Source: a virus
Lineage: Duplodnaviria; Heunggongvirae; Uroviricota; Caudoviricetes
DNA length: 12,475 nt
IMG/VR virus record: IMGVR_UViG_2923286960_000002
Strand: one strand, 5' to 3'
A program made the position numbers and the translations under genes. Shown here piece by piece: positions 1 through 12,475 of this stretch. Every line of letters starts with the position of its first letter. The first letter of the stretch is position 1. Under the pieces are notes generated by a model, which saw only the letters and a list, made by a program, of their open reading frames with translations, ran no database searches and had not been told where the DNA came from.

Positions 1-1230
1 ATGAGCAGAGCACTTAACAAACTGAGCGATACACAGCTGAGGAAAATCAACGGCACACCCGCCCAAAAAACAGCCTTTCTTAATGACGGTGGAAACCTGA
101 GCGTCAGGCATTCAACCAGCGGCCTTTTAACCTGGTATTTCACCTACAGGGCCGGAACGGGAAGGGGAGCACGACCGGAACGGATTAAGCTGGGAAATTA
201 TCCTGATCTGAGTCTGAAAGCTGCCAGGGAAAAAGCGGCACAGTGTCGCGCTTGGCTTGCTGAGGGGAAAAATCCACGTCATGAGATGAATTACACCGTA
301 CAGAAAGCGTTAAAGCCCGTAACGGTTGGCGATGCGCTTACCTACTGGCTTGAGTCTTACGTAAAGGAAAACCGCGTGGATTATGCCGCCCTGAAAAAGC
401 GCCTTAATAATCACGTAATACAGCACATTGGTGCTATGCCGCTGGATAAATGCGAGCTACGGCACTGGCTGGCCTGTTTTGACCAGGTGGCAAAGCGAAC
501 GCCTGTTACTGCCGGATTCTTGCTACAGACGTGCAAACAGGCGCTTAAGTTCTGCCGGAGGCGGCGCTATGCAATCAGCAACGTTCTTGATGATATGAGT
601 GTGGCAGACGTTGGGAAAAAACCGGATATAAGCGAGCGTGTCTTAAGCACCAAAGAACTTGGCGAATTATTGCAGGCACTGGACAAAAAAATATTTTCCC
701 CTTACTACGTCGCACTAATCCGCCTCCTGATTGTTTTCGGATGCCGGACGGTAGAACTGAGGTTATCGGAGATCAGCGAGTGGGATTTTACCGAAATGCT
801 CTGGACCGTGCCGAAAGAACACAGCAAAACGAAGGTGGCAATATTCCGGCCCATACCGGAAGCAATACTGCCGTTCGTCACGCAGCTGGTGGAGCAGAAC
901 AGGCACACGGGCTTATTGCTGGGGGAAGTGAAACAGGAAACAAGCGTGTCGCAGTACGGTAGATTAGCGCACAGGAGGCTAAAACACCCTCACTGGTCAC
1001 TGCATGACATCCGGCGCACCTTTACAACGATGCTGAACGATTTAGGCGTGGATCCTCACGTCGTGGAGCAGCTTACAGGTCATCAGATGCCAGGGATGCA
1101 ACGAGTCTATAACCATTCCCGTTATCTGGATGCGAAACGTGACGCGCTGGATATGTGGACGGAGCGGTTAGGGATACTGGCGGGAACACATGAAAACGTA
1201 ACCACATTGCCAATAGCCAGAGAAATATAA
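1..1230 (+). CDS. int: Tyrosine recombinase/integrase, P4 (CP4-57 IntA-like) family
   Basis: 409 aa ORF; C-terminal catalytic region HDIRRTFTTML...LTGHQ...RVYNHSRY matches the R/H-x-x-R/H/Y pattern of P4-type integrases; N-terminal arm-binding-like region. Window starts at its ATG. Confidence 0.93.
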   Translation: MSRALNKLSDTQLRKINGTPAQKTAFLNDGGNLSVRHSTSGLLTWYFTYRAGTGRGARPERIKLGNYPDLSLKAAREKAAQCRAWLAEGKNPRHEMNYTVQKALKPVTVGDALTYWLESYVKENRVDYAALKKRLNNHVIQHIGAMPLDKCELRHWLACFDQVAKRTPVTAGFLLQTCKQALKFCRRRRYAISNVLDDMSVADVGKKPDISERVLSTKELGELLQALDKKIFSPYYVALIRLLIVFGCRTVELRLSEISEWDFTEMLWTVPKEHSKTKVAIFRPIPEAILPFVTQLVEQNRHTGLLLGEVKQETSVSQYGRLAHRRLKHPHWSLHDIRRTFTTMLNDLGVDPHVVEQLTGHQMPGMQRVYNHSRYLDAKRDALDMWTERLGILAGTHENVTTLPIAREI

Positions 1231-1253
1231 TTTTTTTTGCGATTTTTCAGGAT

Positions 1254-1313
1254 GCGGACAACGTGAAACAACGAGACACAACGACGAACAACAAGGAACA
1301 AAATGGAACAACG
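1254..1313. repeat. Six tandem 10-bp units with ACAAC(G) core, one helical turn apart
   Basis: ggacaACG tgaaACAACG agacACAACG acgaACAACA aggaACAAAA tggaACAACG, directly after the int stop codon. Confidence 0.6.
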
Positions 1314-1595
1314 GGTTAAAAATCAGCCATCGTAATAACCATTTGATTTTTATAGGTGTACTGTTTTTTTATACACTGGCGAATCACTCTTAAAAATATG
1401 TAAAAAAGGCGTAAAAGTAAAATTTTATGCCTTTGCATCATAATGAATTAAAAGAGTTTTTATTCTCATTCCCCCTGCTTCTGTAAAACGACCGCCGCCA
1501 GTGTTTGCCATTCCACAAACACCCTGACACAATCCGACACAACCCAACCCAATAATCCACCCAATGACTCTTTAAGAAACAACAAAGGGGGAATT

Positions 1596-1784
1596 GTGTT
1601 AAGCACAGATCGCTTTATACGTGAAAAAGAATGTCAGCAACTTACAGGCCTGAGCCGCTCATGTCGGTACCGCCTGGAAAAAGCCGGACAATTCCCATCA
1701 CGGCGTAAGCTGGGCGGTCGTTCCGTTGGCTGGTCTTTATCCGAAGTTCTGGCATGGAAGGACAGCTGCGAGGCAGTTCACTAA
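1596..1784 (+). CDS. alpA: AlpA-family (excisionase-like) HTH regulator
   Basis: 62 aa, GTG start preceded by AAAGGGGG SD; motif LTGLSRSCRYRLEKAGQFP...KLGGRSVGW typical of the prophage AlpA/Xis-like family; sits just downstream of int as in CP4-57/PICI layouts. Confidence 0.85.
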   Translation: MLSTDRFIREKECQQLTGLSRSCRYRLEKAGQFPSRRKLGGRSVGWSLSEVLAWKDSCEAVH

Positions 1785-1836
1785 TCAGGCTGGCGGCACA
1801 CAGCCGCCACCCATCCACTAATACAGAGATCTAACC

Positions 1837-3129
1837 ATGAATACTGGATATTCTCCCGAACAAGGGCGGGGCTTCGTTCGTCCTGAAAAACAGAATCTGC
1901 AAAATTTTGCCGAAAGTATTCCGGTTATTTCCGGCCTTACTGGCGGGAGTGAAACCAATATTGTTAACGCCAGAGCGTTGCAGATGTTTGATGATAAAAA
2001 GGGAGTAAATTTAACTTACACCCCTGACGGCAATCAGAATATGAGCATTATCTCTGAGTCAGGTTTCTACAAACTAATAAAAACAAAAAGCGCCCCGTTG
2101 CCGGAGCGCCTTTGTGAACAATTAACCTACTGCGCAAAAAATGAATCTGAGCAGTGGGATTATATCAACCATGTGGAGAAGCGCCACAATTGCCGAATAA
2201 CGGGCAAAACAAAGGCCACCCGCTACGGTGGCCCCTCGACACAAGCTACACGTTATCCCCAACGCATGAGCATTGCCAACAATGCCACATTTGCGGCTGG
2301 TGGGCAATGCAATCAGTCTGGTTCAGTTCGTTGCCATACCTGCAATGAGCGCTTTTCCCTGTACTCTTTAAGGAATTGCTCAAGGGCAAAAGCACATGGC
2401 GCGAATCTTTCTGATTCATGCTCTATCTTTCTGCGCCGTCTTTTCCGTGCCGGTGATAATGTTTTGGTCAATTCTTTATCGGTCATTGTGTTGTCCTGCA
2501 TAGCAATGCGCCGTAATACCTTACACCACGGCGCTGATGGTGATTACTCTGGTTCTTTGGCCTTGCGGCGCTGGCGATATTCAACTTCTCGTTTTAATGC
2601 CGCAGTAACAAATTGCCCCGTACTTTCGCCAGGCATTTTTACCGCCTCAACATTGTTCATAACTTCATGCGGAACCCTTGCCGCAACGGTTTGTGATTTT
2701 GCGTTTACTGCTTTTGTCGCCATGTGGTGTACCCCTCATAAAAAACAAATGCAGTATGCAGGAAAAAAAATAAGTGTTCAACACTTGACGTGTTTAACAC
2801 CTGGGTTTAAATTGGTGTTCAACACCTTGTTGGCGCAAGGTGCAGAAACGACGAAACCCGGCAGTGCGCTAACACTAACCGGGCTTCTAACCACCAACGA
2901 TAGCGAAAGTATCGAGGTAGCTATGCGAAATCATACCACACACCCGCAAGGGCGGGACTCGCACAACCTGAATAAATACATCTGGCGTTTTATCGCCCTG
3001 AGCACGGCACAACCGCGCGTGATTACCATTGAGGCCACCAGCGAACAGGAAGCACGCCAGCAATCTCCGGCTGGCTGCGTGATGGTATTCGCTGCCCGTA
3101 TTCGTCAGGAGGTGTGCCATGTGCAATAA
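1837..3129 (+). CDS. Bro-N-like domain ORF (antirepressor-like N-terminus); 3' two-thirds of the frame doubtful, possibly degraded
   Basis: N-terminal ~110 aa resemble the Bro-N domain (NLQNF..., DDKKGV..TPDGNQNMSIISESGFYKLIKTKSAP). From about aa 120 the frame is Cys/Ser/Thr/Arg-rich and poor in Asp/Glu/Lys, and it is antisense to a well-supported RHH gene. No clear SD before the ATG. Confidence 0.4.
   Translation: MNTGYSPEQGRGFVRPEKQNLQNFAESIPVISGLTGGSETNIVNARALQMFDDKKGVNLTYTPDGNQNMSIISESGFYKLIKTKSAPLPERLCEQLTYCAKNESEQWDYINHVEKRHNCRITGKTKATRYGGPSTQATRYPQRMSIANNATFAAGGQCNQSGSVRCHTCNERFSLYSLRNCSRAKAHGANLSDSCSIFLRRLFRAGDNVLVNSLSVIVLSCIAMRRNTLHHGADGDYSGSLALRRWRYSTSRFNAAVTNCPVLSPGIFTASTLFITSCGTLAATVCDFAFTAFVAMWCTPHKKQMQYAGKKISVQHLTCLTPGFKLVFNTLLAQGAETTKPGSALTLTGLLTTNDSESIEVAMRNHTTHPQGRDSHNLNKYIWRFIALSTAQPRVITIEATSEQEARQQSPAGCVMVFAARIRQEVCHVQ
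2313..2501 (-). CDS. Hypothetical small basic protein, second gene of the leftward RHH operon
   Basis: 62 aa, highly charged (KRRRRK), 42 nt downstream of the RHH gene on the same strand; no recognisable fold by eye. Confidence 0.3.
   Translation of the reverse strand: MQDNTMTDKELTKTLSPARKRRRRKIEHESERFAPCAFALEQFLKEYREKRSLQVWQRTEPD
2544..2723 (-). CDS. Ribbon-helix-helix (Arc/CopG/MetJ-like) DNA-binding protein, putative island repressor
   Basis: 59 aa ORF below the track's length cutoff: MATKAVNAKSQTVAARVPHEVMNNVEAVKMPGESTGQFVTAALKREVEYRQRRKAKEPE. Beta-strand/helix/G-x-S-T helix pattern of RHH proteins; GAGGGG SD ~9 nt upstream of ATG; three palindromic operators immediately upstream. Confidence 0.55.
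   Translation of the reverse strand: MATKAVNAKSQTVAARVPHEVMNNVEAVKMPGESTGQFVTAALKREVEYRQRRKAKEPE
2753..2826. promoter_or_regulatory. Divergent promoter/operator switch with three GTGTT-N-AACAC palindromes
   Basis: O1 2774-2784 gtgttcaacac, O2 2790-2800 gtgtttaacac, O3 2815-2825 gtgttcaacac. Rightward promoter TTGACG (2785-2790), 17 nt spacer, TAAATT (2808-2813). Leftward promoter TTGAAC (complement of 2776-2781), 17 nt, CATACT (complement of 2753-2758). O1 overlaps the leftward -35, O2 lies in the rightward spacer, O3 just after the rightward -10. Confidence 0.55.
2923..3129 (+). CDS. Hypothetical 68 aa protein; alternative first gene of the rightward operon (same frame as the 3' end of the 1837 ORF)
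   Basis: ATG at 2923 preceded by GAGGT; lies ~100 nt downstream of the rightward promoter; its stop overlaps the next start (ATGTGCAATAA). Confidence 0.3.
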   Translation: MRNHTTHPQGRDSHNLNKYIWRFIALSTAQPRVITIEATSEQEARQQSPAGCVMVFAARIRQEVCHVQ

Positions 3130-3358
3130 CATCCGTCCGGACGCAGCCGCCGAAGCCATCATAACGCTAATGCACGCGCTGATTGATATTTCTGTTATCG
3201 CAGACATGGCGCATAAGCACGCCACCAGTGAAACAGAATATGCCGGGGCTTTCGTTCCTCATTCGCTGGCGGTTATGCAACTTAGTGCGGATATGGCGCT
3301 GAATGAGGCCAAAGCCATCCTGATTGCTGATTGTGAAAATGGGGGGGGTTATGCGTGA
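3119..3358 (+). CDS. Hypothetical protein (79 aa)
   Basis: ORF translationally coupled to its neighbours; acidic, helical-looking composition; no recognisable family by eye. Confidence 0.5.
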   Translation: MCNNIRPDAAAEAIITLMHALIDISVIADMAHKHATSETEYAGAFVPHSLAVMQLSADMALNEAKAILIADCENGGGYA

Positions 3359-3584
3359 TGATCGTTTTAATTCCCTGAAACAGGAATTTTCCGGCGTTCC
3401 TGATGATGCGGCTGATGCGCTTTCGTCAATGCCAGAACTTATTAGAGCGGCTTTTTTCTTACTTTCCACGAGAGAATATAAATCAACGGGGCTTGATGTA
3501 CTGAATATCGCCGCCGATTATGCGGAATATGTGGCAGAGGCGCGTTACAGAAGAAAATTTCCTGAGGATGTAAGCCATGCGTGA
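3351..3584 (+). CDS. Hypothetical protein (77 aa; start chosen at the ATG behind a G-rich SD)
   Basis: Track ORF begins at 3324, but GGGGGGG at 3341-3347 precedes the ATG at 3351; start overlaps the upstream stop (ATGcgTGA). Confidence 0.5.
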   Translation: MRDDRFNSLKQEFSGVPDDAADALSSMPELIRAAFFLLSTREYKSTGLDVLNIAADYAEYVAEARYRRKFPEDVSHA

Positions 3585-3810
3585 TATTTACCACGAAACA
3601 ATAGACCGCGCATTTCTTGCACTTTCTCACAGTGAAAACATGCTGGAAATATTGCGCATATGGCTTGAAACACTTGGCGACAATGAACGCGACAAACAAA
3701 AATCAAGAATTGCCACGGCATTAATAACGCTTCTTGAGCCTGTAATAATGGAACTGCAAGAAATAGATCTATTGCACGACAGATATAAAGAACAGCACAC
3801 CGGAGAATAA
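3577..3810 (+). CDS. Hypothetical protein (77 aa)
   Basis: Start overlaps the stop of the upstream gene (ATGcgTGA at 3577-3584); protein-like composition. Confidence 0.5.
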   Translation: MRDIYHETIDRAFLALSHSENMLEILRIWLETLGDNERDKQKSRIATALITLLEPVIMELQEIDLLHDRYKEQHTGE

Positions 3811-3815
3811 AAATA

Positions 3816-4115
3816 ATGAAACTTAAATATTCTGGCTTAACTGCCAGTGGCAACACTCACCCTAAATTTACGCGCGGTGATATTTACCGCGACCAGTACG
3901 GCGGCACGGTAATGATTAAGGGCGTGGAAGAACGGCGTGTAACCTACCGCCGTGAAGGTTACGAATATGATTGCGTGATGCCTGTTTATCAGTTCCGGCG
4001 TGATTTTTCTCTGGTACAGACCGCGCCGCATAACGTGCCCACCAGCAACGCCAGGGCACGGGCAAACATCCAGAAGCTGAAAACCATGATTAACGGATTC
4101 AGGGGTAAAAAATGA
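3816..4115 (+). CDS. Hypothetical protein (99 aa), possibly a conserved enterobacterial prophage small protein
   Basis: Motif GDIYRDQYGGTVMIKGVEERRVTYRREGYEYDC; stop overlaps the start of the replication gene (ATGA at 4112-4115). Confidence 0.5.
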   Translation: MKLKYSGLTASGNTHPKFTRGDIYRDQYGGTVMIKGVEERRVTYRREGYEYDCVMPVYQFRRDFSLVQTAPHNVPTSNARARANIQKLKTMINGFRGKK

Positions 4116-5866
4116 AACTGGCACCGAACGTAAAACAGCAGTCACGCGGCATAAAACACAAAGGAACAGAAGTCATTATTTTTGCGGGTAGTGATGCCTG
4201 GGCACACGCGAAACAATGGCAGGAACATGATGCGCGTATGGCCGGAGATAATGAGCCTCCTGTGTGGCTTGGGGAGCAGCAGTTATCAGAACTGGATAAG
4301 CTGCAAATTGTGCCGGAAGGCAGAAAATCCGTGCGCATATTCAGGGCCGGATATCTTGCGCCAGTAATGATAAAGGCGATTGGCCAGAAGCTGGCGGCGG
4401 CAGGCGTACAGGATGCAAATTTTTACCCTGATGGTATGCACGGTCAGAAGGTGGAGAACTGGCGCGAATATCTGGCCCGTGAGCGCCAGAATCTTTCTGA
4501 TGGTCTGGTCATTGAGCTTCCGGTAAAGCAAAAGGCGCAACTTTCGCAGATGGCGGACAGTGAGCGCGCGCAGCTGCTTGCCGATCGCTTTGATGGCGTT
4601 TGCGTACATCCTGAAAGTGAAATCGTTCACGTATGGCGCGGCGGGGTATGGTGTCCGGTCAGCACAATGGAGCTTAGCCGCGAAATGGTGGCGATCTATT
4701 CAGAGCACAGGGCCACTTTCAGCAAGCGCGTAATCAATAACGCCGTGGAAGCGTTAAAAGTTATTGCCGAACCAATGGGCGAGCCGTCCGGCGATTTGCT
4801 GCCGTTCGCCAATGGTGCGCTTGACCTGAAAACGGGGGAATTTTCCCCGCACACGCCGGAGAACTGGATCACCACGCACAACGGCATTGAGTACACGCCA
4901 CCAGCACCCGGGGAGAACATCCGCGATAACGCGCCAAACTTTCATAAATGGCTTGAGCACGCAGCCGGAAAAGACCCGCGCAAGATGATGCGTATATGTG
5001 CCGCGCTGTACATGATTATGGCGAACCGGTACGACTGGCAGATGTTTATTGAGGCCACCGGAGACGGCGGGAGCGGTAAAAGTACATTCACACACATAGC
5101 CAGCCTTCTGGCAGGGAAACAGAACACGGTAAGCGCTGAAATGACATCGCTTGATGATGCTGGTGGACGTGCGCAGGTTGTCGGGAGTCGTCTTATCGTC
5201 CTGGCTGACCAGCCGAAATATACAGGCGAAGGAACGGGCATCAAGAAAATCACAGGCGGCGACCCCGTGGAAGTTAACCCGAAATATGAAAAGCGTTTCA
5301 CGGCGGTAATCAGGGCGGTGGTGCTGGCGACCAACAACAACCCGATGATATTCACCGAACGGGCCGGAGGTGTGGCACGTCGTCGCGTGATTTTCCGTTT
5401 CGACAATATCGTCAGTGAGGCCGACAAAGACAGGGAGCTACCGGAAAAGATTGCGGCTGAAATCCCTGTGATTATCCGCCGATTACTGGCGAACTTTTCC
5501 GCCCCTGAAAAGGCACGGGCTTTACTCATTGAACAGCGTGACGGTGATGAAGCACTGGCGATAAAGCAGCAAACGGATCCGGTTATTGAGTTTTGCCAGT
5601 TCCTGAATTTTCTGGAGGAAGCGCGCGGCCTGATGATGGGGGGCGGTGGCGATTCAGTGAAGTACACGACCAGGAACAGCCTTTACCGCGTCTATCTGGC
5701 GTTTATGGCATACGCAGGCAGGAGCAAACCGCTAAACGTAAATGACTTTGGCAAGGCTATGAAGCCAGCCGCGAAAGTTTACGGACATGAATATATTACG
5801 CGGAAAGTTAAGGGAGTAACGCAGACTAACGCAATAACAACAGACGATTGCGACGCGTTTTTATAA
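4112..5866 (+). CDS. Replication initiator/helicase, P4 alpha C-terminal-like (D5_N + SF3 helicase); PICI Pri-Rep-like
   Basis: 584 aa; Walker A GDGGSGKST near aa 315 followed by a hydrophobic strand ending LIVLAD; overall resemblance to the phage/plasmid primase P4-family C-terminal domain. No TOPRIM or AEP primase motif recognised by eye in the N-terminal 300 aa. Confidence 0.88.
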   Translation: MKLAPNVKQQSRGIKHKGTEVIIFAGSDAWAHAKQWQEHDARMAGDNEPPVWLGEQQLSELDKLQIVPEGRKSVRIFRAGYLAPVMIKAIGQKLAAAGVQDANFYPDGMHGQKVENWREYLARERQNLSDGLVIELPVKQKAQLSQMADSERAQLLADRFDGVCVHPESEIVHVWRGGVWCPVSTMELSREMVAIYSEHRATFSKRVINNAVEALKVIAEPMGEPSGDLLPFANGALDLKTGEFSPHTPENWITTHNGIEYTPPAPGENIRDNAPNFHKWLEHAAGKDPRKMMRICAALYMIMANRYDWQMFIEATGDGGSGKSTFTHIASLLAGKQNTVSAEMTSLDDAGGRAQVVGSRLIVLADQPKYTGEGTGIKKITGGDPVEVNPKYEKRFTAVIRAVVLATNNNPMIFTERAGGVARRRVIFRFDNIVSEADKDRELPEKIAAEIPVIIRRLLANFSAPEKARALLIEQRDGDEALAIKQQTDPVIEFCQFLNFLEEARGLMMGGGGDSVKYTTRNSLYRVYLAFMAYAGRSKPLNVNDFGKAMKPAAKVYGHEYITRKVKGVTQTNAITTDDCDAFL

Positions 5867-5880
5867 TTTTTTGCAATGGC

Positions 5881-6104
5881 TGTCTACCCTGTCTACCTGA
5901 GTAAAGAAAAATACATTTAATTCAGTATATTAACTTAGGTAGACAGCCTTTTTTCACTGTCTACCTACTATCTACCCTCTCTACCTGATTTTACCTGAAT
6001 CAGACAGGGAGGTAGATACGGGGTAGATAGTGGATAAAAGCACTCTACCCCGCTGAAAGCCGCGCCATTACTGGCATGAGAGCCAGTAAGGTAGATAAGG
6101 TAGA
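5881..6104. repeat. Replication origin: about 11 iterons with TCTACC core in both orientations flanking an AT-rich spacer
   Basis: tgTCTACCc (5883), tgTCTACCt (5893), GGTAGAca (5939), TCTACC (5960, 5971, 5980), GGTAGA (6011, 6022), TCTACC (6044), GGTAGA (6090, 6099); AT-rich 5905-5935. Directly downstream of the replication gene, as in SaPI/PICI origins. Confidence 0.75.
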
Positions 6105-6154
6105 CAAGGGGAGGCACAACTCAAAACTTTTTAAACGAGGGGGTAAAAATAAAA

Positions 6155-6412
6155 ATGCGCACATCAGGAAAACTTAATAATCAGAAGAAGCAGCATAACC
6201 GCGCCATTGACCTTACAGAGCACTGGCTGAGAGTGGCGATAAAAATCATCGACCGCAACACGGGGGAAGGATACGCGAAAGCACATCCCGACCTGATAAG
6301 CGCATTCATGACCACGGCGGCGGCAAACTTTGCCACGCTGACAGAACGGGAGATTGCCGAAGCGGAACAGGTAACAACCATCAACGTTAAAACCGGAGAG
6401 GTGGAATCATGA
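6155..6412 (+). CDS. Hypothetical protein (85 aa)
   Basis: Strong SD GAGGGGG upstream; stop overlaps the SSB-like start (ATGA at 6409-6412). Confidence 0.5.
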   Translation: MRTSGKLNNQKKQHNRAIDLTEHWLRVAIKIIDRNTGEGYAKAHPDLISAFMTTAAANFATLTEREIAEAEQVTTINVKTGEVES

Positions 6413-6831
6413 CAGCACAGATAGCAGCTTACGGGCGGCTGGTGGACGACCCGCAGGTAAAACAGACCAGCAAGGGCACACCAATGACGCTGGCACGTAT
6501 GGCGGTCCCCCTTCCGTGCAGCCAGGCAGATGACGGAACGGCGACGATGTGGTTATCCGTCCTGGCATTTGGCAGACAGGCCGAAGCACTGGAAAGGCAC
6601 CGCAAGGGTGAACTCCTGAGCGTGGCGGGTAACATGCAGATCAGCCAGTGGACTGGGCAGAACTGAGAAACGCGGCAGGGCTGGCAGGTTATCGCAGACA
6701 GTGTAATCAGTGCGCGAACGGCGCGACTGGGCGGCAAAAAAGGTCAACAGGGCCAGGCTACTGACGCGCTGAACAGGGCAAAACAACAGGCGGGGAATGA
6801 TGATCCGTACGGGGATAACATACCGTTTTAA
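6409..6831 (+). pseudogene. ssb: SSB-like OB-fold protein interrupted by a single in-frame TGA (6664-6666); nonsense mutation, readthrough or sequencing error
   Basis: N-terminal 85 aa align to the SSB OB fold (YGRLVDDPQVKQTSKG...WLSVLAFGRQAEALERHRKGELLSVAGNMQISQWTGQN). The same frame continues after the TGA for 54 codons and ends in the SSB acidic tip ...DDPYGDNIPF. The TGA sits where SSB has a conserved Gly codon. Confidence 0.7.
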
Positions 6832-6846
6832 GCGACGAGTGACAGA

Positions 6847-6869
6847 AGCCGGAGCAATCCGGCTTTTTT
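6847..6869 (+). terminator. Rho-independent terminator
   Basis: Stem agccgga/tccggct, loop gcaa, followed by a T run. Confidence 0.6.
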
Positions 6870-6917
6870 ACGGGTCCTCCTGGCGGGGTGGGCCTGAACA
6901 CGGGGCGGGAGGCGCGG
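6869..6917 (+). other. Degenerate cos-like sequence, paralogous to the cos at 9311-9360
   Basis: tacgggtcctcctgg...acggggcgggaggcgcgg parallels tacgggtcctttccgg...acggggcggcgacctcgcgg, but the cohesive-end core is altered. Confidence 0.45.
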
Positions 6918-7044
6918 AAAAAAGCGCATTTTTGTGATTTTATCGTCATCATCATCATGAGCGTAATTTATTGTTTTTAATTGTTTTGATGCAAAAAAGA
7001 TGATGGTTATGGTTAATTTTTGTTCGACATCTTTGCAGGCAGAT

Positions 7045-7085
7045 AAAAAAGCCCGATAAGGTCAGAGGTGGCTTATCGGGCTTTT
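7045..7085. terminator. Bidirectional hairpin terminator
   Basis: Perfect 10-bp stem gcccgataag/cttatcgggc with 11-nt loop, A run upstream and T run downstream. Confidence 0.5.
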
Positions 7086-7161
7086 GCATATGAGGCTTTT
7101 TGGTGCACTGACACACATGATCGGGATAATCATTTCATAATTTGCAACACAACTCAATATC

Positions 7162-7211
7162 ATTGCACAAAATGCAATCATGATTATAATCAGAGCTGGA
7201 TGAACATCCAG
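7162..7211 (+). promoter_or_regulatory. Head-operon promoter with overlapping palindromes
   Basis: -35 TTGCAC (7163-7168), 16 nt spacer, perfect -10 TATAAT (7185-7190); palindrome ATTGCAcaaaaTGCAAT (7162-7178) over the -35 and perfect 16-bp palindrome CTGGATGAACATCCAG (7196-7211) near +1. Confidence 0.5.
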
Positions 7212-7246
7212 TTATGATTTTTTAAGTCGAAGAGGAATTTCTTACT

Positions 7247-7453
7247 ATGGCTGAAGAGAAAAAAGGCGGTGTTTCGGTGTACATAAGCCCCGAAATCGTG
7301 GAGGTGCTCAAGCAGCGCCACAAAAAAAACTATGAGGCTGGCGTGGCGGCTGGACTGGATCCGCTGATGACGCCGGAGCCGTCGATAGGTTCACTTGTAC
7401 GCTCTTATTTACTTGCGGCGCTTGGGATGCATAAAAATTATGGGGGTGAATAA
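7247..7453 (+). CDS. Hypothetical protein (68 aa), first gene of the head operon
   Basis: SD GAGGA upstream; stop overlaps the capsid gene start (TAATG); no recognisable family by eye. Confidence 0.5.
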   Translation: MAEEKKGGVSVYISPEIVEVLKQRHKKNYEAGVAAGLDPLMTPEPSIGSLVRSYLLAALGMHKNYGGE

Positions 7454-8508
7454 TGGCAGGAAAAGCAACGGCACTTAACACTAACCAGCTTTTCATGTAC
7501 CTGAATCGCGGGGATATTGCGGATTTTAAATTCAGCCCTCTGTTTACCACGCTGTTTTTCCCGAACGTGGCGACATTCAGCACGCAAAACATCATGCTGG
7601 ATACCCTGGACATTGAAGAAGTCACCATGTCGGCGTTTTGTTCGCCTATGGTGGGTAGCCAGGTTCAGCGCGATAAAGGGTACGAAACCAGCACGATTAA
7701 ACCTGGCTACATGAAGCCAAAGCACGAAATCGATCCAACGAAAACCATCATGCGCATGGCTGGAGAAGATCCGGCACAGCTTAACGACCCTACCTATCGC
7801 CGTATGCGCCTGATTACTGGCAATATGCGCCGCCAGATAAACGCCATAAAAGCGCGCGTGGAATGGCTGGCGGTAAATGCGGTAACGACCGGAAAAAACA
7901 TCATTGAGGGCGAAGGCATAGAGCGCTATGAAATCGACTGGAAGATCCCAAGTAAAAATATCGCCAGACAGGGACATGGCAAAAAGTGGTCAGAGGCAGA
8001 TAAGGAAACACACGATCCAATCTATGACATTGAGCTATACGCAGATCAGGCAGGTTGCCCCGCAAACGTCATGATTATGGGCGTTGATGTATGGCGCATG
8101 TTACGCAGCTTTAAAAAATTCCGTGAACTGTACGATCTCTCCCGTGGTTCAGAATCCGCCGCAGAGCTGGCATGTAAAAACCTGGGCGAAGTGGTGAGCT
8201 TTAAAGGCTATCTTGGTGATCTGGCCCTTATCGTCTATTCCGGCAAATACACTGACAGCGACGGCACAGAAAAATATTTCCTTGAGCCTGATTTGCTTGT
8301 CCTGGGCAACACCAACAATAAAGGGCTGGTGGCCTATGGTGCGATTATGGATCAGGACGCAGTAAGAACGGGGGCAACGCAAAACATGTACTACCCGAAA
8401 AACTGGATTGAGGACGGAGATCCGGCGATTGAGTACGTGCAGACGCACAGCGCACCGCAGCCGGTTCCGGCAGATATTCGCAAATTTGTTACTGTCAAAA
8501 TTGCTTAA
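7453..8508 (+). CDS. Major capsid protein, lambda gpE family
   Basis: 351 aa; conserved blocks shared with lambda gpE as recalled: FKFSPLF..LFF, PGYMKPKHE, EDPAQLNDPTYRR, WSEADKETHDP, VSFKGYLGD.A.IVYSG.Y, LVLGNT, YPKNW...GDPA, SAP. Confidence 0.92.
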   Translation: MAGKATALNTNQLFMYLNRGDIADFKFSPLFTTLFFPNVATFSTQNIMLDTLDIEEVTMSAFCSPMVGSQVQRDKGYETSTIKPGYMKPKHEIDPTKTIMRMAGEDPAQLNDPTYRRMRLITGNMRRQINAIKARVEWLAVNAVTTGKNIIEGEGIERYEIDWKIPSKNIARQGHGKKWSEADKETHDPIYDIELYADQAGCPANVMIMGVDVWRMLRSFKKFRELYDLSRGSESAAELACKNLGEVVSFKGYLGDLALIVYSGKYTDSDGTEKYFLEPDLLVLGNTNNKGLVAYGAIMDQDAVRTGATQNMYYPKNWIEDGDPAIEYVQTHSAPQPVPADIRKFVTVKIA

Positions 8509-8519
8509 CGGGGGATTCT

Positions 8520-8855
8520 ATGGACACTCCATACATTGAGTTATTTGCAGGCAGTCAGCAGGTCGCCACGACGCTGGTACATTTTGCCGCTGATGCTGGC
8601 GTTATTCAGGAATTTACCCCGCTGATGCTGGCGGACAATGGCGAGTTTAAGCCGTGGGATGGTCAGGAATCTGGCAAGGCTGTTTATCTGACTTCGTATC
8701 CTGTGGACACGTCAAAGCAGAAATCAGCACAGTGTTACAAGACGGGGATATTCAATATTGCCGCCGTTAACTGGCCTGAGAGCGTCGACACCGATGCGAA
8801 AAAATGCGCCGCCTTTGCGGGTTCCGGCGTATCCGTTCAGCCGCTGGCCCGATAA
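8520..8855 (+). CDS. Head decoration protein, lambda gpD-like
   Basis: 111 aa; TPLMLADNGEFKPWDG..., YKTGIFNIAAVNWPESVDTDAKKCAAFAGSGVSV parallels lambda gpD TPLMLDTSSRKLVAWDG..., YKSGTF.YEDVLWPEA..DETKKRTAFAGTAISIV. Confidence 0.85.
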   Translation: MDTPYIELFAGSQQVATTLVHFAADAGVIQEFTPLMLADNGEFKPWDGQESGKAVYLTSYPVDTSKQKSAQCYKTGIFNIAAVNWPESVDTDAKKCAAFAGSGVSVQPLAR

Positions 8856-8867
8856 GCAGGGGGAACG

Positions 8868-9281
8868 ATGGCAACGAATGAAAGCATCATGACGCTACCG
8901 CTGGCGAGTAAATTTAAAGCCGAAGCGCGGGCAATGGCTGACAGAGGTTTATCAACCTATGAGGCCGTATATCAACTAAACAAACTGGAAGAGCAGGACA
9001 AGCCGCGCGCTGATGCGATTATGGCGCTTCATGAGCATAAAGACTATCAGCCGCTGTTACGTGCAATGGCAAACGTGCCATGTATTAGCGTCGATAATGC
9101 TCGTGAAATCCTGAACATGACCATAGAGCAGGAGCGCCCAAAGGTTGCACCAGAGCTTACCGCAGCCTTTGAAAACTTTATGGACATGCACAGCCCGCAA
9201 GCCGTATCAGCTGGCATGGCATACGATGGCAGAAACCAGGGCGATGACGGCGACATCGATCGCATACTGAAAACCATCTGA
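8868..9281 (+). CDS. Hypothetical protein (137 aa), last gene of the head operon
   Basis: Good SD and protein-like composition; position analogous to lambda FI but no similarity recognised by eye. Confidence 0.5.
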   Translation: MATNESIMTLPLASKFKAEARAMADRGLSTYEAVYQLNKLEEQDKPRADAIMALHEHKDYQPLLRAMANVPCISVDNAREILNMTIEQERPKVAPELTAAFENFMDMHSPQAVSAGMAYDGRNQGDDGDIDRILKTI

Positions 9282-9286
9282 GACAA

Positions 9287-9311
9287 GGCCGGAGAAATCC
9301 GGCTTTTTTTT
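9287..9311 (+). terminator. Rho-independent terminator
   Basis: Stem gccgga/tccggc with gaaa loop followed by T8; near-identical to the hairpin at 6847-6869. Confidence 0.6.
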
Positions 9312-9392
9312 ACGGGTCCTTTCCGGCATATGGACCCGTTACGGGGCGGCGACCTCGCGGGTTTTCGCTATTTATGACGTTTTTCCGTGAAG
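9311..9392 (+). other. Lambda-type cos site (cos1): cosQ/cosN plus a short cosB-like segment
   Basis: tacgggtcctttccgg...ccgttacg | GGGCGGCGACCT (9344-9355) CGCGGGTTTTCGCTATTTATGA matches the lambda right-end/left-end junction as recalled, with the 12-nt cohesive end identical; followed by an R3-like cgtttttccgtg. Lies ~90 bp upstream of the Nu1-like gene. Confidence 0.85.
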
Positions 9393-9444
9393 GTGACACC
9401 ACCACCACTTGATTAATATTTAACCATGCAGTTAAGGTAACATT

Positions 9445-9885
9445 ATGATTGATAAAGCTTGTTTTGTAAGTCAGCAGGAAATAGCTGAACATTTCAAGGT
9501 TAACAGAACCACTATTCGCGCATGGACCAAACAGGGGATGCCGTATCTTAATGCGGATCGCGGAAAGTCTGGCGGTTATCACATCGGGCATACATTGCTT
9601 TGGTCTTCAGGTAAAAGCCGTCTTGAGGCCATCAGATATCACGTAGAAACCAGTGTGCTGGAAAAAATTATGTTTGCCAGGCTGCTTTCATCTGAGCGTG
9701 ACGAGTACTCCAGTGAAGAAACAGAACATAGATTTGATGAAGGTTTACAGATTTACGGCTACTCACCGGAAGAAGTGAGCAAAGCGCGAAATAAAATGGC
9801 CGGCTTTCTGGCTGGGTGGCGTCATGCCGTAAGCGTTCGCCGTGCCAGCATGGAACAATCAGTCGTTACAGAACAGCAAAGTTAA
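9445..9885 (+). CDS. Nu1-like HTH protein: small terminase subunit or TerS-mimicking packaging redirector (Rpp-like)
   Basis: 146 aa; N-terminus FVSQQEIAEHFKVNRTTIRAWTKQGMPYL..GKSGGYHIGHTLLW resembles the lambda Nu1 winged-HTH DNA-binding domain (QLADIFGASIRTIQNWQEQGMPVL...); SD AAGGT upstream. Confidence 0.75.
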   Translation: MIDKACFVSQQEIAEHFKVNRTTIRAWTKQGMPYLNADRGKSGGYHIGHTLLWSSGKSRLEAIRYHVETSVLEKIMFARLLSSERDEYSSEETEHRFDEGLQIYGYSPEEVSKARNKMAGFLAGWRHAVSVRRASMEQSVVTEQQS

Positions 9886-9914
9886 AAATCACTTTCTGTT
9901 ACGCCATCAAATAC

Positions 9915-10011
9915 GCAATACAACAACCACGTATTTTTTTAAAACTATTTGATTCAATTAGCATTTTTTTATTTTTAGCATCAAAAAAACACTATCAGGT
10001 TGTTGTATTGC
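9915..10011. repeat. 14-bp perfect inverted repeat flanking a 69-bp AT-rich segment (candidate cosB with TerS R-sites and a bend site)
   Basis: GCAATACAACAACC at 9915-9928 and GGTTGTTGTATTGC at 9998-10011; the intervening sequence is AT-rich with an IHF-like aATCAAatagTTt on the bottom strand. Confidence 0.5.
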
Positions 10012-10079
10012 TCTTTATTTTTACTTAGTTATCAAATGGATATGACAAACAATTAAACAACAACCTCCCTCTAAAAAAG

Positions 10080-10150
10080 CTCATAAATAGCGAAAAACCG
10101 CGAGGTCGCCGCCCCGTAACGGGCCATAATTCCAGGAAGGACCCGACGAC
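10080..10150 (-). other. Second lambda-type cos site (cos2), inverted relative to cos1
   Basis: Reverse complement reads cgggtccttcctgg...ggcccgttacg GGGCGGCGACCT CGCGGTTTTTCGCTATTTATGAG (12-mer at complement of 10103-10114), near-identical to cos1 over ~45 bp. Confidence 0.8.
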
Positions 10151-10178
10151 ACCAGACTATCAGAACGATGGGGGCACA

Positions 10179-10460
10179 ATGACAGAAGCCGAAATACTGC
10201 GATTAATCCGCCGCGTTGCCGGAATCAGCCAGCAGGCCGACGAACAGACCACGCAGCCGGACAGCGTGACCGCCGAAAATTATGTTCGTGTGGTTGCTGA
10301 GATGATTCGCCGTAATGGTATCCAGCTTAATGATGTGGATATGCGCAACATACGGATCCGCGTTCTTGAAATGCTGGCCTACAATCGCCGCGTGGCACTG
10401 TATCGGGAAACGGAGAAAATTACGTACCACTGGAAGAAGCCGGAGCGGTTGCGGCGGTAA
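10179..10460 (+). CDS. Hypothetical protein (93 aa)
   Basis: ATG preceded by GGGGG SD; charged, helical-looking composition; no family recognised by eye. Confidence 0.45.
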   Translation: MTEAEILRLIRRVAGISQQADEQTTQPDSVTAENYVRVVAEMIRRNGIQLNDVDMRNIRIRVLEMLAYNRRVALYRETEKITYHWKKPERLRR

Positions 10461-10628
10461 CTGGTTGATATTTTCGAAATTCGCCAGCGGCGAACATCGG
10501 GGAAACCAGCCTAACCCGTTGATATTTTCGGGAACCTCAAATTGAGGAGGTCGGAAACATAACCCGTCATATTCTGGATGCTGATAATTACCACGCAGCC
10601 CATTAAGGCCTAACCCGTTGATTCTTCC
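10458..10628. repeat. Four direct repeats with TAACCCGTTGAT-like core at ~50-bp spacing
   Basis: taactggttgatattttcg (10458), taacccgttgatattttcg (10512), taacccgtcatattctgg (10560), taacccgttgattcttcc (10611). Confidence 0.55.
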
Positions 10629-10633
10629 ACAAT

Positions 10634-10798
10634 CCCCCATTGGGGGAGGCTGGGCGGCCTGCTGTGGGCTTTTCCACCATTGGTGGAAAGGCGCACATCT
10701 GGATCATCATTACGGTGATCAAGGGTATGTAAAACCCACCAGCCTGATTGACATTTAACCGGAAAAAAGCCAGGTAGCCCCATTATGGGGATCCCCAT
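10634..10798. repeat. Cluster of short GC-rich palindromes
   Basis: CCCCCATTGGGGG (10634-10646), TTCCACCATTGGTGGAA (10672-10688), CCCCATTATGGGG (10778-10790), ATGGGGATCCCCAT (10785-10798). Confidence 0.4.
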
Positions 10799-11014
10799 AT
10801 CGACATTAACGCCCCTCATGAATTGGCGCGCTTCCCCCTGGAAAGATGACCCGCCTGTATATTTCTTGTGTCTATTTGTTCCACGTTGTTTCATACAGTG
10901 CAACGATCGGTGTAGTTAATGGTGTAGTCAATTTGCGATTTTTAGCACTTTTTGCAGTGCGAATCATTTAATTAAATCAATGGCTTGCCTTGATGTAGTG
11001 ATAAAAGGGCATAT

Positions 11015-12475
11015 TTATTCATCTTTCGGCGCAGAATGCTGGCGACCAAAAATCACCTCCATCCGCGCACCGCCCAGCATGCTCTCTCCGGCGACGATTT
11101 TACCCTCATATTGCTCGGTGATTTCGCGGGCTACCGCCAGCCCTACACCTTGCCCAGGGCGTAAAGTATCAACCCGTTGACCACGGTCGAAAATGACCTC
11201 TCGCTTGCTTAATGGAATACCGGGGCCATCATCCTCGACCACAATATAGAGATGCTCGTCGGTTTGCCTTGCAGAAATTTCGACAAACTCGAGGCAATAT
11301 TTACAGGCATTATCCAGCACGTTGCCCATCACCTCGACAAAATCGTTCTGCTCACCGACAAAGCTGATCTCTGGCGAAATATCGAGAGAGATATTGACCC
11401 CTTTGCGTTGATACACTTTGTTCAGCGCTGAGGTGAGATTGTCCAGCAGTGGGGCGACCGGATGCAGCTCGCGGCTGAGCAATGTCCCGCCGCGCATACT
11501 GGCACGATGCAGGTAGTAGCCAATTTGCTGTGAAATGCGGCTGATTTGCTCCAGCATTACCGGCTCAGCATCACTGACGCTCATCTTTTCACTACGCAGA
11601 GAACGCAGCGTACTTTGCAGCACCGCCAGTGGCGTTTTCAGACTATGGGTCAGGTCGGTGAGCGTCGTACGGTATTTGTCGTAACGTTCGCGTTCACTTT
11701 TTAACAATCGGTTCAGGTTTCGTACCAGACTGGTCAGTTCTCGCGTTGTGGCTGGATTGAGCAATTCGCGGTTATGTTCTTCCAGTTCGCGGACTTCTTT
11801 TGCCAGGGCTTCGATGGGGCGTAAACTCCACCAGGCGGCGACCCACAGCAGCGGGATCACTAACAGCAGATTGGCTGAGAGCACATAGATAAACCAGCTC
11901 CAGACCATATAGGAACTTTTTAGCTCCACCGGAATGGTATCCACCACCACAATGGTTAATTTTGGCATCCGCGATGTTGCCGGGTAGACGTTTACTGCCA
12001 CCGAGTGGGTCATCTCCGCGTCGTCATCATCTTCCCGCACTTCCTGCAACTGTTGCTGTATCGAATGATCTCCACTCAGCAAGAGGCTGGTATCGTTAAC
12101 ATCCGCTTCAATTTCATGAAAACCATTCGATTTCAGCCAGTCAGGCTGGATCATCTTCATCAGCCAGGGCACGTCACGTTGCGCCCATAAAAGCTGCCCG
12201 TTCTCATCATAAATTAGCGTCATGGTGGGGCTTTGCTTGTCGATATTTTCGGGTAACTCGACATGCAACTTATTGTTTTCCCACTTCGCAAGGGTATAGA
12301 ACAGATTGCTCTCGCCACGTAACAGCCGAAACGTAGTTTTATCGAAACTGACGCTATAACCGATCAGCGCGACCATTCCGTAGGCAAGCGAAAGCACCAG
12401 TACTACCGCTGCCGTTGCCAACAGAAAACGTACCCGCAGCGAGAGCGGGAAAAAAAGACGCAGTAATTTTTTCAT
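11015..12475 (-). CDS. phoQ: Sensor histidine kinase PhoQ (chromosomal, Escherichia/Shigella-type)
   Basis: 486 aa full-length ORF; N-terminus [33 protein letters not shown], periplasmic acidic patch [12 protein letters not shown]-box [12 protein letters not shown], and G-box/ATP-lid motifs DDGPGIP and GQGVGLAV. Window ends at its ATG. Confidence 0.95.

Follow-up and report, generated by a model that had tools for sequence, protein, structure and literature searches.

EcCICFT073 is the prototype of the Gram-negative phage-inducible chromosomal islands (PICIs) and was described by Fillol-Salom et al. (2018, ISME J, PMC6092414; 2019, Mol Cell, PMC6739421). It is listed at AE014075.1, positions 1377749-1389210 (11.4 kb), with ycfD-phoQ as attachment gene and GGACATATTT as core, and the same site and core are given for EcCIRM12579 (PMC6092414, Table S1). 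In total, eight PICI attC sites were reported in E. coli (PMC6092414). Excision, replication, packaging, interference and induction by a helper phage were shown experimentally for EcCICFT073 (PMC6092414), whose family is that of the classical, cos-packaged, Rpp-type Gram-negative PICIs.

Two further systems are close enough to be compared. The EcCIEDL933-type capsid-forming PICI of O157:H7 (Alqurainy et al., bioRxiv 10.1101/2022.09.08.507074) occupies the same roxA-phoQ site and has the GGACATATTT core at both ends. It differs from the island studied here by its length of about 15.5 kb, its DUF927-type replication protein and its complete HK97-type head and terminase module, and it is without the rpp/cos1 arrangement. 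Satellite P4 is similar in size (11.6 kb), and it has the genes sid, psu, delta and epsilon, a plasmid mode, and P2-type helpers and cos. P4 integrates in a tRNA-Leu gene.

Identity of the island

The window, which is the whole stretch of 12,475 nucleotides that we analysed, holds nearly all of an 11,187-bp PICI of the EcCICFT073 family integrated between roxA (ycfD) and phoQ. We give this reading a probability of about 95%. The window is identical (100%) to the chromosomes of E. coli B-2207 and NCTC86 and collinear with E. coli CFT073, with 92% coverage and 96.5% identity. In the source genome as well as in CFT073, roxA lies to the left and phoQ to the right. The attachment site, the gene order throughout, the iteron origin and the pair of cos sites are shared with EcCICFT073. 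Int (WP_000085269.1) and AlpA have the same protein accessions in both islands, and the identities of the other compared proteins are given in Table 1. An earlier note on this DNA had proposed a phage-inducible chromosomal island, which is borne out by the gene content and by the near-identity to EcCICFT073.

Several of the features used to define Gram-negative PICIs agree with this assignment. The length from core to core lies inside the size range of about 11-15 kb, and int, alpA, pri-rep and the iterons follow each other on the plus strand in the conserved PICI order. As in the Rpp/cos-type E. coli PICIs, a lambda-type cosN with a non-phage cosB immediately precedes the Rpp gene. Portal, terminase, tail and lysis genes were absent among the island genes, whereas lambda E-like and D-like head genes were present (Pfam); the lambda-type head genes c1499 and c1500 are the same exception in the accepted prototype (PMC6092414).

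There are also differences from EcCICFT073. The core is GGGCATATTT at both ends here and GGACATATTT at both ends there, and the nucleotide divergence is about 3.5%, with a few short replaced segments and with small indels at 2576-2836, 3113-3297 and 9881-10081. In the present island RppA is 2 aa longer, ssb is interrupted by a nonsense codon and there is no perC.

Both the element and its non-tRNA target site were already known. Work published in 2018-2019 on a copy with 96.5% identity at this locus had described and tested the element, its att site, replication origin and cos sites, and the packaging-redirection protein. The present result serves to file the window as an EcCICFT073-family PICI with exact boundaries.

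Table 1. Features of the island and its flank, with positions in the window
Feature	Position	Strand	Evidence
attL core GGGCATATTT	171-180 bp left of position 1, outside the window		matching genome record (L001 5820-5829)
int, tyrosine recombinase with N-terminal arm-binding domain	1-1230	+	Pfam: Arm-DNA-bind_3 9.5e-19, Phage_int_M, Phage_integrase 5.4e-17
Six ACAAC-type motifs, 10 bp apart, between int and alpA	1258-1312	+	pattern search
alpA	1596-1784	+	Pfam: Phage_AlpA (PF05930), E 3e-18
BRO-N/anti-repressor gene fragment (pseudogene)	2041-2548	+	RefSeq incomplete; weak PHROG Ant matches, residues 49-84
YlcI/YnfO-family small protein	2544-2723	-	RefSeq; phrog_949, 8.6e-22
Icd-like protein	2923-3129	+	RefSeq; phrog_6196, 1.6e-46
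Three small overlapping ORFs (3119-3358, 3351-3584, 3577-3810)	3119-3810	+	hypothetical proteins; PHROG families of unknown function
DUF4222 protein, c1493 homologue	3816-4115	+	Pfam: DUF4222, 1.6e-24
pri-rep, primase-family/SF3 helicase replication initiator, c1495 homologue	4112-5866	+	Pfam: D5_N, DUF5906, Pox_D5; 99% identical to CFT073 protein
Iteron origin	5880-6107		nine YTVTCTACC copies, all within the interval, 0.24 expected
85-aa hypothetical protein	6155-6412	+	phrog_1231, 2.5e-48; without Pfam match
ssb pseudogene	6409-6831	+	in-frame TGA 6664-6666; RefSeq 'internal stop'; Pfam SSB on N-terminal 85 aa
68-aa protein, c1498 homologue	7247-7453	+	phrog_3255, 8.5e-46
Lambda gpE-like major capsid protein, c1499 homologue	7453-8508	+	Pfam: Phage_cap_E, 4.6e-50; 95% identical to CFT073 protein
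Lambda gpD-like head decoration protein, c1500 homologue	8520-8855	+	Pfam: HDPD, 1.3e-17; phrog_49
137-aa protein like the C-terminal (scaffold-like) end of head maturation proteases	8868-9281	+	phrog_1999, 3.7e-65; phrog_53
cos1 (cosQ/cosN; cosN 9344-9365), directly upstream of rppA	9313-9384	+	exact lambda-type cosN GGGCGGCGACCTCGCGGGTTTT
rppA, redirecting phage packaging protein	9445-9885	+	97% identical to 144-aa CFT073 protein
cos2, orientation opposite to cos1	10074-10145	-	cosN on minus strand, 1 mismatch
Conserved 93-aa terminal ORF	10179-10460	+	99% identical to CFT073 protein; phrog_1561, a PHROG of unknown function
Right att arm	10859-10933	+	75-nt repeat common to the int-proximal arm (repeat family D1), 79% identity, 35-nt identical core
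attR core GGGCATATTT	11007-11016		alignment of empty site and junction
phoQ, chromosomal flank outside the island	11015-12475	-	RefSeq; WP_000735412.1 with and without the island

Attachment site and boundaries

The flanks were aligned with island-free E. coli, a check that the earlier note had proposed. In the empty site (L003) roxA and phoQ are 75 bp apart, and alignment with both junctions defines attL, attR and a 10-bp direct repeat that flanks a clean 11,187-bp insertion. The insertion is thus in the short stretch downstream of phoQ, as had been suspected. The attL core and the int-proximal arm were read from the matching genome record and not from the window. The extent of 1-10950 that had been given for the island is approximate, as the right end lies at 11006/11016 and the left end, with the attL core and the int-proximal arm, is outside the window, which opens at the int ATG. 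That the window is conserved core sequence is contradicted by the empty site and by most of the E. coli genomes surveyed.

phoQ is convergent and full length, as the earlier note had read it, and its last codon shares 2 nt with the island boundary: the phoQ stop codon (11015-11017) includes the last two bases of the attR core. The supposed absence of roxA turned out to be an effect of the window start position only. The source genome has roxA on the other side of the island, to which it was moved, with its start 248 bp upstream of int.

ARAGORN found neither a tRNA nor a tmRNA gene in the window, in line with the earlier note. The idea that the target is an unusual one does not hold, since ycfD-phoQ is a listed att site (PMC6092414, Table S1) and 599 of the 5,426 complete E. 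coli genomes searched (about 11%) have the roxA-attL-int junction. The two copies of GGACATATTT in the CFT073 locus sit at exactly the record coordinates of Table S1. All inspected occupants of the roxA-phoQ site (source genome, CFT073 and O157) are PICIs, and an integrase homologue with more than 50% identity was found in no phage record. With the O157 element the island shares an int-alpA region of 96% identity, DUF4222, ssb, the terminal ORF and the right att arm. The roxA-phoQ gap is a common PICI landing site, which takes classical and capsid-forming islands with one shared integrase.

The right arm contains tandem 12-mers (GGTGTAGTTAAT/GGTGTAGTCAAT) at 10909-10932, and the int-proximal arm carries its repeats outside the window, 22-45 bp before position 1 (L001 5955-5978). 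The matching genome region has four of these 12-mers against 0.14 expected; all of them are in the two att arms, at distances of 74 and 125 bp from the core. The attP of P4 (NC_001609) has annotated tandem 12-bp arm repeats in the same layout, on both sides of the core and at unequal distances. By this likeness, the GGTGTAGTTAAT 12-mers, arranged in tandem in each arm, are candidate Int arm-type sites. Another reading that we considered was that the actual att core is the 35-nt identical repeat near both ends and that the outer 75-125 bp were left by another element. This was rejected because the empty site joins at GGGCATATTT, the published core corresponds to the same 10-mer, and the repeat has the position and the tandem 12-mer form of P4 arm sites. 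In the reconstructed attP, 8-bp inverted repeats (TGATAAAA/TTTTATCA) flank GGGCATA, and the junction predicted after excision is TGATAAAAGGGCATATTTTATCA. Strand exchange in attP would probably take place within the 7-bp GGGCATA between the inverted TGATAAAA/TTTTATCA.

Because the site of crossover reaches into the phoQ stop codon, all sequence 3' of phoQ is exchanged on insertion, and 11.2 kb come to lie between phoPQ and roxA. In the roughly 11% of E. coli with an island at this place, this might change how the phoPQ transcript terminates, how stable it is, or how far transcription reads through into roxA, although we consider this rather unlikely. We are as doubtful about a separate idea, in which the 10-bp-phased ACAAC repeats of both att arms and ahead of alpA would serve as one common set of operators and link excision to the autoregulation of AlpA. 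Neither altered phoPQ/roxA expression nor a shared ACAAC operator is addressed in the literature consulted.

Control and replication genes

The features named in the earlier note (integrase, AlpA, SF3 helicase and iteron origin) are all present according to Pfam and motif counts. AlpA was shown in EcCICFT073 to activate the island genes and to be needed for induction (PMC6092414). The pattern ACAAC-N5-ACAAC-N5-ACAAC has eight overlapping matches in the matching genome region, compared with 0.06 expected. These matches fall at 1258-1312, at 1519-1543 beside a promoter-like site that precedes alpA, and in the two att arms, where the motif is on the other strand. From their 10-bp phasing and position, the ACAAC repeats are candidate binding sites of AlpA or Int.

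Pri-Rep has a visible Walker A motif (GDGGSGKS), and its residues 141-573 are 41% identical to residues 324-756 of P4 alpha, which are the helicase and ori-binding part. The alignment showed that the N-terminal primase part of P4 alpha is absent from Pri-Rep, so the island has no full-length alpha. The iterons are positioned on both sides of an AT-rich stretch. This layout matches Fig. 2a of PMC6092414, where the rep-ori was shown to drive replication.

Capsid homologues, cos sites and packaging

The earlier note did not mention the E/D capsid homologues, the pair of cos sites or Rpp, the parts that would determine how the island is packaged. The exact match to the lambda-type cosN (GGGCGGCGACCTCGCGGGTTTT) is not expected by chance at all, and the cos1 sequence is that of 'CFT073 cos.1' in Fig. 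S5 of PMC6092414. cos1 and cos2 form a 72-nt inverted repeat with 86% complementarity. RppA matches RppC (PDB: 6HLK/6HN7) with an E-value of 3.3e-31, and its N-terminal HTH matches the TerS family phrog_57. Function and mechanism of Rpp were shown in PMC6739421. The 137-aa protein aligns with positions 495-567 of the 583 positions of the phrog_53 profile, 'head maturation protease' (1.7e-10). Together, the capsid E/D-like genes, the two cos sites and RppA would account for packaging of the island by lambdoid helpers.

Alternative assignments

The likeness to P4 extends to the size, the AlpA/Vis-type regulator, an Icd-like protein, the alpha-like helicase domain and the integrase, which the earlier note had called P4-type. 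That label is right for the domain architecture with its arm-binding domain, but the identity to P4 Int is only 23%. A P4-like satellite with a P2-type helper would moreover be expected to look different elsewhere: homologues of Sid, Psu, Delta and Epsilon are absent (all ORFs scanned, Pfam and PHROGs), Pri-Rep is without the primase part of alpha, and the island has lambda-type cos sites as well as an Rpp gene. PMC6092414 also explicitly sets these islands apart from P4, and we regard this assignment as very improbable. The same holds for a capsid-forming PICI that builds its own heads. Major capsid, decoration and scaffold-like proteins are encoded, and a true capsid-forming PICI with a nearly identical int lies at the same site in O157, but genes for portal, protease, head-tail connectors, HNH and terminase (TerS/TerL) are absent, so that the head and packaging module is incomplete, and its capsid gene belongs to the lambda E type, the O157 element having one of the HK97 type. 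In EcCICFT073, all packaged DNA was phage-sized, and deletion of c1499 or c1500 had no effect (PMC6092414). That the element continues beyond the window as a larger prophage or genomic island is refuted. The window stops at the int ATG with nothing visible leftward, yet in the source genome roxA starts next to int with the attL core in between, the empty site joins exactly there, and roxA and phoQ bracket the island directly.

The family may be right and this allele nevertheless a decayed, immobile copy, a fixed remnant. The ssb nonsense codon, the absence of perC and the BRO-N fragment fit such a copy, but the BRO-N fragment is also present in the mobile CFT073 element, and the genes reported to be required (PMC6092414) include neither ssb nor perC. 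int, alpA, pri-rep, the origin, cos1 and rppA, all of which were shown to be needed for EcCICFT073 transfer, are intact and 97-100% identical to the prototype. The island also has a perfect att core at either end and conserved arm repeats. Decay is therefore an unlikely description of this copy, although a less remote one than the three others. Given the premature stop in ssb, the loss of perC and the small indels, mobility of the present allele is a prediction from the prototype.

Proposed life cycle

As an EcCICFT073-family PICI, the present island would probably be induced by a helper, be packaged and interfere with the helper, to judge from its Int, AlpA, Pri-Rep and RppA proteins (97-100% identical) and the conserved cos1. 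The steps involving the helper, AlpA, Int, Pri-Rep, RppA and packaging were shown in the literature for EcCICFT073 and are carried over here through proteins with 95-100% identity. A lambdoid helper phage would switch alpA on, and AlpA would activate the rightward operon; induction and uncontrolled replication would then need int and pri. Int would recombine the two GGGCATATTT cores and Pri-Rep would fire the iteron origin. By pairing with the helper small terminase, RppA would block recognition of the phage cos and redirect the terminase to the island cos1/cosB, and full-size helper capsids would be filled with island concatemers. Integration restores the phoQ stop codon, and roxA keeps its own 77-bp upstream region.

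Small genes and minor features

Rfam gave nothing at gathering score in the whole window (E <= 1). A symR-like match at 2850-2922 on the minus strand reached 33 bits against a threshold of 61, and matches to mir-3927 were discarded, as they are merely the palindromic iteron region. In the gene-free right end (550 bp), folding of 10455-10860 on both strands (z of -1.95 and -0.95) gave no convincing structured RNA, and promoter and terminator scans were at or below shuffle expectation.

A mechanical ORF of 430 aa (1837-3129) has no Pfam match and was rejected as a gene, because its frame simply runs on through the BRO-N fragment into the Icd-like gene, and a real opposite-strand gene lies inside it. 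This YlcI/YnfO-family gene is the sole leftward gene of the island. By translation, the stop in ssb falls at Gly86 of the CFT073 protein. perC, which follows ssb in CFT073, is absent, and 6713-7045 has no match. Among the EcCICFT073 counterparts, c1493 is a DUF4222 protein of 99 aa and c1498 has 68 aa (PMC6092414, Table S2). In the O157 capsid-forming PICI, which occupies this site as well, the 93-aa terminal ORF is likewise kept in last position.

Identity of the island

The E. coli B-2207 and NCTC86 chromosomes match the window at 100% identity, and CFT073 aligns with 92% of it at 96.5% identity. Strain CFT073 harbours the phage-inducible chromosomal island (PICI) EcCICFT073, which is listed in Table S1 of Fillol-Salom et al. 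2018 (PMC6092414) at AE014075.1 1377749-1389210 (11.4 kb) with the att core GGACATATTT, the att gene ycfD-phoQ (ycfD is roxA) and the accessory genes rdgR and perC. EcCIRM12579 uses the same att site (PMC6092414). We found GGACATATTT twice in the CFT073 locus (L002 3820 and 15281), exactly at the Table S1 coordinates. The window ORFs agree with the published genes c1493 DUF4222 (99 aa), c1495 pri (584 aa) and c1498 (68 aa), and the c1499 capsid and c1500 head decoration genes have counterparts as well. Because the att site, the gene list and the protein identities agree, the island is an allele of EcCICFT073. The window allele differs in an in-frame TGA in ssb (6664-6666) where CFT073 has Gly86, in the missing perC, in short segments at 2576-2836, 3113-3297, 6713-7045 and 9881-10081, and in a G instead of an A at the third base of the att core at both ends. 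None of these differences touches a function reported as needed for transfer.

The gene order and size are those of Gram-negative PICIs; the capsid (E) and decoration (D) homologues bend the rule that such islands have no structural genes, exactly as in the prototype EcCICFT073. A P4-like satellite does not fit, as sid, psu and delta are missing and the alpha-like replication protein is truncated. Neither does a capsid-forming PICI (cf-PICI), for which portal, protease and terminase are missing. The element type and insertion point had been called correctly in the earlier note.

Features of the island and their identity to CFT073
Feature	Position	Strand	Identity to CFT073	Basis or remark
int, tyrosine integrase with N-terminal arm-binding domain	1-1230		identical accession	Pfam/PHROG; ATG at position 1
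ACAAC array, 3' of int	1258-1312	+		
ACAAC array beside promoter-like site before alpA	1519-1543	+		
AlpA	1596-1784		identical accession	Pfam/PHROG
Replication protein (Pri-Rep), 584 aa	4112-5866		99%	Pfam/PHROG; D5_N/DUF5906/Pox_D5
ssb	6409-6831			TGA-interrupted
Major capsid gene, lambda gpE-like	7453-8508		95%	Pfam/PHROG
Decoration gene, gpD-like	8520-8855			Pfam/PHROG
137-aa protein, like scaffold-like C-terminus of head proteases	8868-9281			Pfam/PHROG
cos inverted-repeat arms	9313-9384 / 10074-10145	+ / -		72 nt, 86% complementary
Lambda-type cosN, first copy	9344-9365	+		sequence match
RppA, 146-aa HTH protein	9445-9885		97%	directly after first cos
Lambda-type cosN, second copy	10093-10114	-		one mismatch
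Terminal 93-aa ORF	10179-10460		99%	phrog_1561
ACAAC array, right att arm	10865-10889	opposite		
ACAAC array, left att arm	L001 5911-5945	opposite		outside window

Integration site and att structure

The window spans from the integrase ATG (position 1) to the phoQ ATG (12475, minus strand), and ARAGORN detected neither tRNA nor tmRNA in it, which bears out the reported absence of a tRNA gene. B-2207 and CFT073 have the same gene order, potABCD, pepT, roxA, island, phoQ, phoP and purB. The earlier note held that roxA is absent; its start lies 248 bp left of the int ATG in B-2207, outside the window, and it was only seemingly missing because the window begins at int. In the island-free locus L003 the gap between roxA and phoQ is 75 bp.

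The att core was defined by aligning the empty site with both island junctions. This yielded the 10-bp direct repeat GGGCATATTT, found in the source-genome locus at L001 5820-5829 (window -180 to -171, left of position 1) and at window 11007-11016, and confirms the insertion next to phoQ. The core-to-core length is 11,187 bp. The right core ends in two bases that also begin the complement of the phoQ stop codon (11015-11017), and integration takes place at the extreme 3' end of phoQ, which is regenerated. Strains with the island and those lacking it share one PhoQ protein accession, so phoQ is indeed intact. The third core base varies, with GGGCATATTT in B-2207 and the empty-site strain and GGACATATTT in CFT073 and the O157 strain, and both ends of any given island carry the same variant (L001/window, L002 and the O157 locus L005).

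The reconstructed attP, TGATAAAA-GGGCATA-TTTTATCA, has a 7-bp centre flanked by 8-bp perfect inverted repeats, which looks like a typical core site for a tyrosine recombinase. A pair of tandem 12-mers (GGTGTAGTTAAT/GGTGTAGT(T/C)AAT) occurs just twice in 24 kb, at a distance from the core of 125 bp on the int side and 74 bp on the opposite side, both within a 75-nt repeat common to the two att arms. We regard the 12-mers as candidate Int arm-type sites because the annotated P4 attP shares this design, with tandem 12-bp arm repeats flanking the core and the int side more distant. The island Int has only 23% identity to P4 Int, and no integrase relative with more than 50% identity was found among 50,697 phage records.

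Of 5,426 complete E. coli genomes, 599 match at least 80% of a 601-nt probe that covers the roxA 5' end, attL and the initial 171 nt of island sequence; the others mostly match up to the core and no further, like empty sites. Strain AR-0429 (O157) has, at this roxA-phoQ site, an island of ~15.5 kb, 96% identical in the int-alpA region, with a complete HK97-type head and terminase module. It is an EcCIEDL933-type cf-PICI (bioRxiv 10.1101/2022.09.08.507074). Eight PICI attC sites are described in E. coli (PMC6092414), and for this integrase lineage a non-tRNA target is documented and no surprise. The description of the target as unusual overstates its novelty, since ycfD-phoQ is a published att site and the junction is present in those 599 genomes; element and target were already known.

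Replication, head and packaging genes

The Pfam and PHROG scans recovered the tyrosine integrase, AlpA and helicase-type replication gene that had been named. The head genes, the cos pair and the RppC-like protein were missing from that list. Residues 141-573 of the replication protein share 41% identity with P4 alpha in its helicase/ori-binding part; the N-terminal primase domain of alpha is missing here. The previously proposed iteron origin is real, because nine copies of YTVTCTACC, on both strands and flanking an AT-rich stretch directly 3' of the replication gene, all lie inside 5880-6107, against 0.24 expected by chance.

The 137-aa protein, encoded 3' of the decoration gene, matches the 'head maturation protease' profile phrog_53 at its C-terminal end (positions 495-567 of 583), a match that points to a scaffold like lambda Nu3. 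The E-like, D-like and scaffold-like genes make up a trio of head genes without a known role in EcCICFT073-type islands. The 146-aa HTH protein matches the solved RppC structure (PDB 6HLK/6HN7) with an E-value of 3e-31. Each cosN is placed inside one arm of the 72-nt inverted repeat, in opposite orientations, and the repeat brackets rppA, so that both cos sites face inwards. Deletion of cos2 in EcCICFT073 raises lambda-mediated transfer (PMC6092414), which the opposed cos sites might explain.

In EcCICFT073, alpA is induced independently of SOS by the lambdoid helpers CFT073 phage 4, lambda and phi80, and AlpA switches on the alpA promoter as well as the genes downstream (PMC6092414). AlpA over-expression alone leads to induction and uncontrolled replication, with int and pri needed; recA hosts support integration of a plasmid that carries the int-attP segment, and rep-ori sustains plasmid replication (PMC6092414). 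Packaging requires the helper TerS and the island cos1, the packaged DNA is phage-sized and deleting the homologues of the capsid and decoration genes is without effect (PMC6092414). RppA binds phage TerS, stops phage packaging and steers the complex to the island cosB in cos1 (PMC6739421). Given the near-identity, a lambdoid helper would likewise induce alpA in the window island, and AlpA would then activate the alpA promoter and the genes that follow. Int and attP would mediate integration, rep-ori would drive replication, and RppA would redirect TerS to cos1 for phage-sized packaging.

Repeats and the right end

ACAAC-type pentamers at exact 10-bp spacing form arrays in four places. The pattern ACAAC-N5-ACAAC-N5-ACAAC has eight overlapping matches against 0.06 expected, and we found no description of such arrays in the PICI literature cited here. 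They could be shared candidate AlpA or Int sites, coupling excision to alpA autoregulation.

The 93-aa ORF is the last gene before attR in both the window island and the O157 cf-PICI, despite their completely different packaging modules. Because it travels with the int/att ends, it may be part of the integration/excision module. The gene-free right end (10461-10860) is only partly common to the O157 cf-PICI, and its folding z-scores are unremarkable. It contains three (GCCTAA)CCCGTTGAT(A/T)T-type motifs (at about 10461, 10509 and 10608) and several short perfect palindromes (CCCCCATTGGGGG, CCACCATTGGTGG and CCCCATTATGGGG).

One weak symR-like Rfam match (2850-2922, minus strand) sits in the divergent region between a leftward ylcI/ynfO-family gene and an Icd-like gene; it scores 33 bits (E 0.004), where the gathering score is 61, and is probably due to chance.
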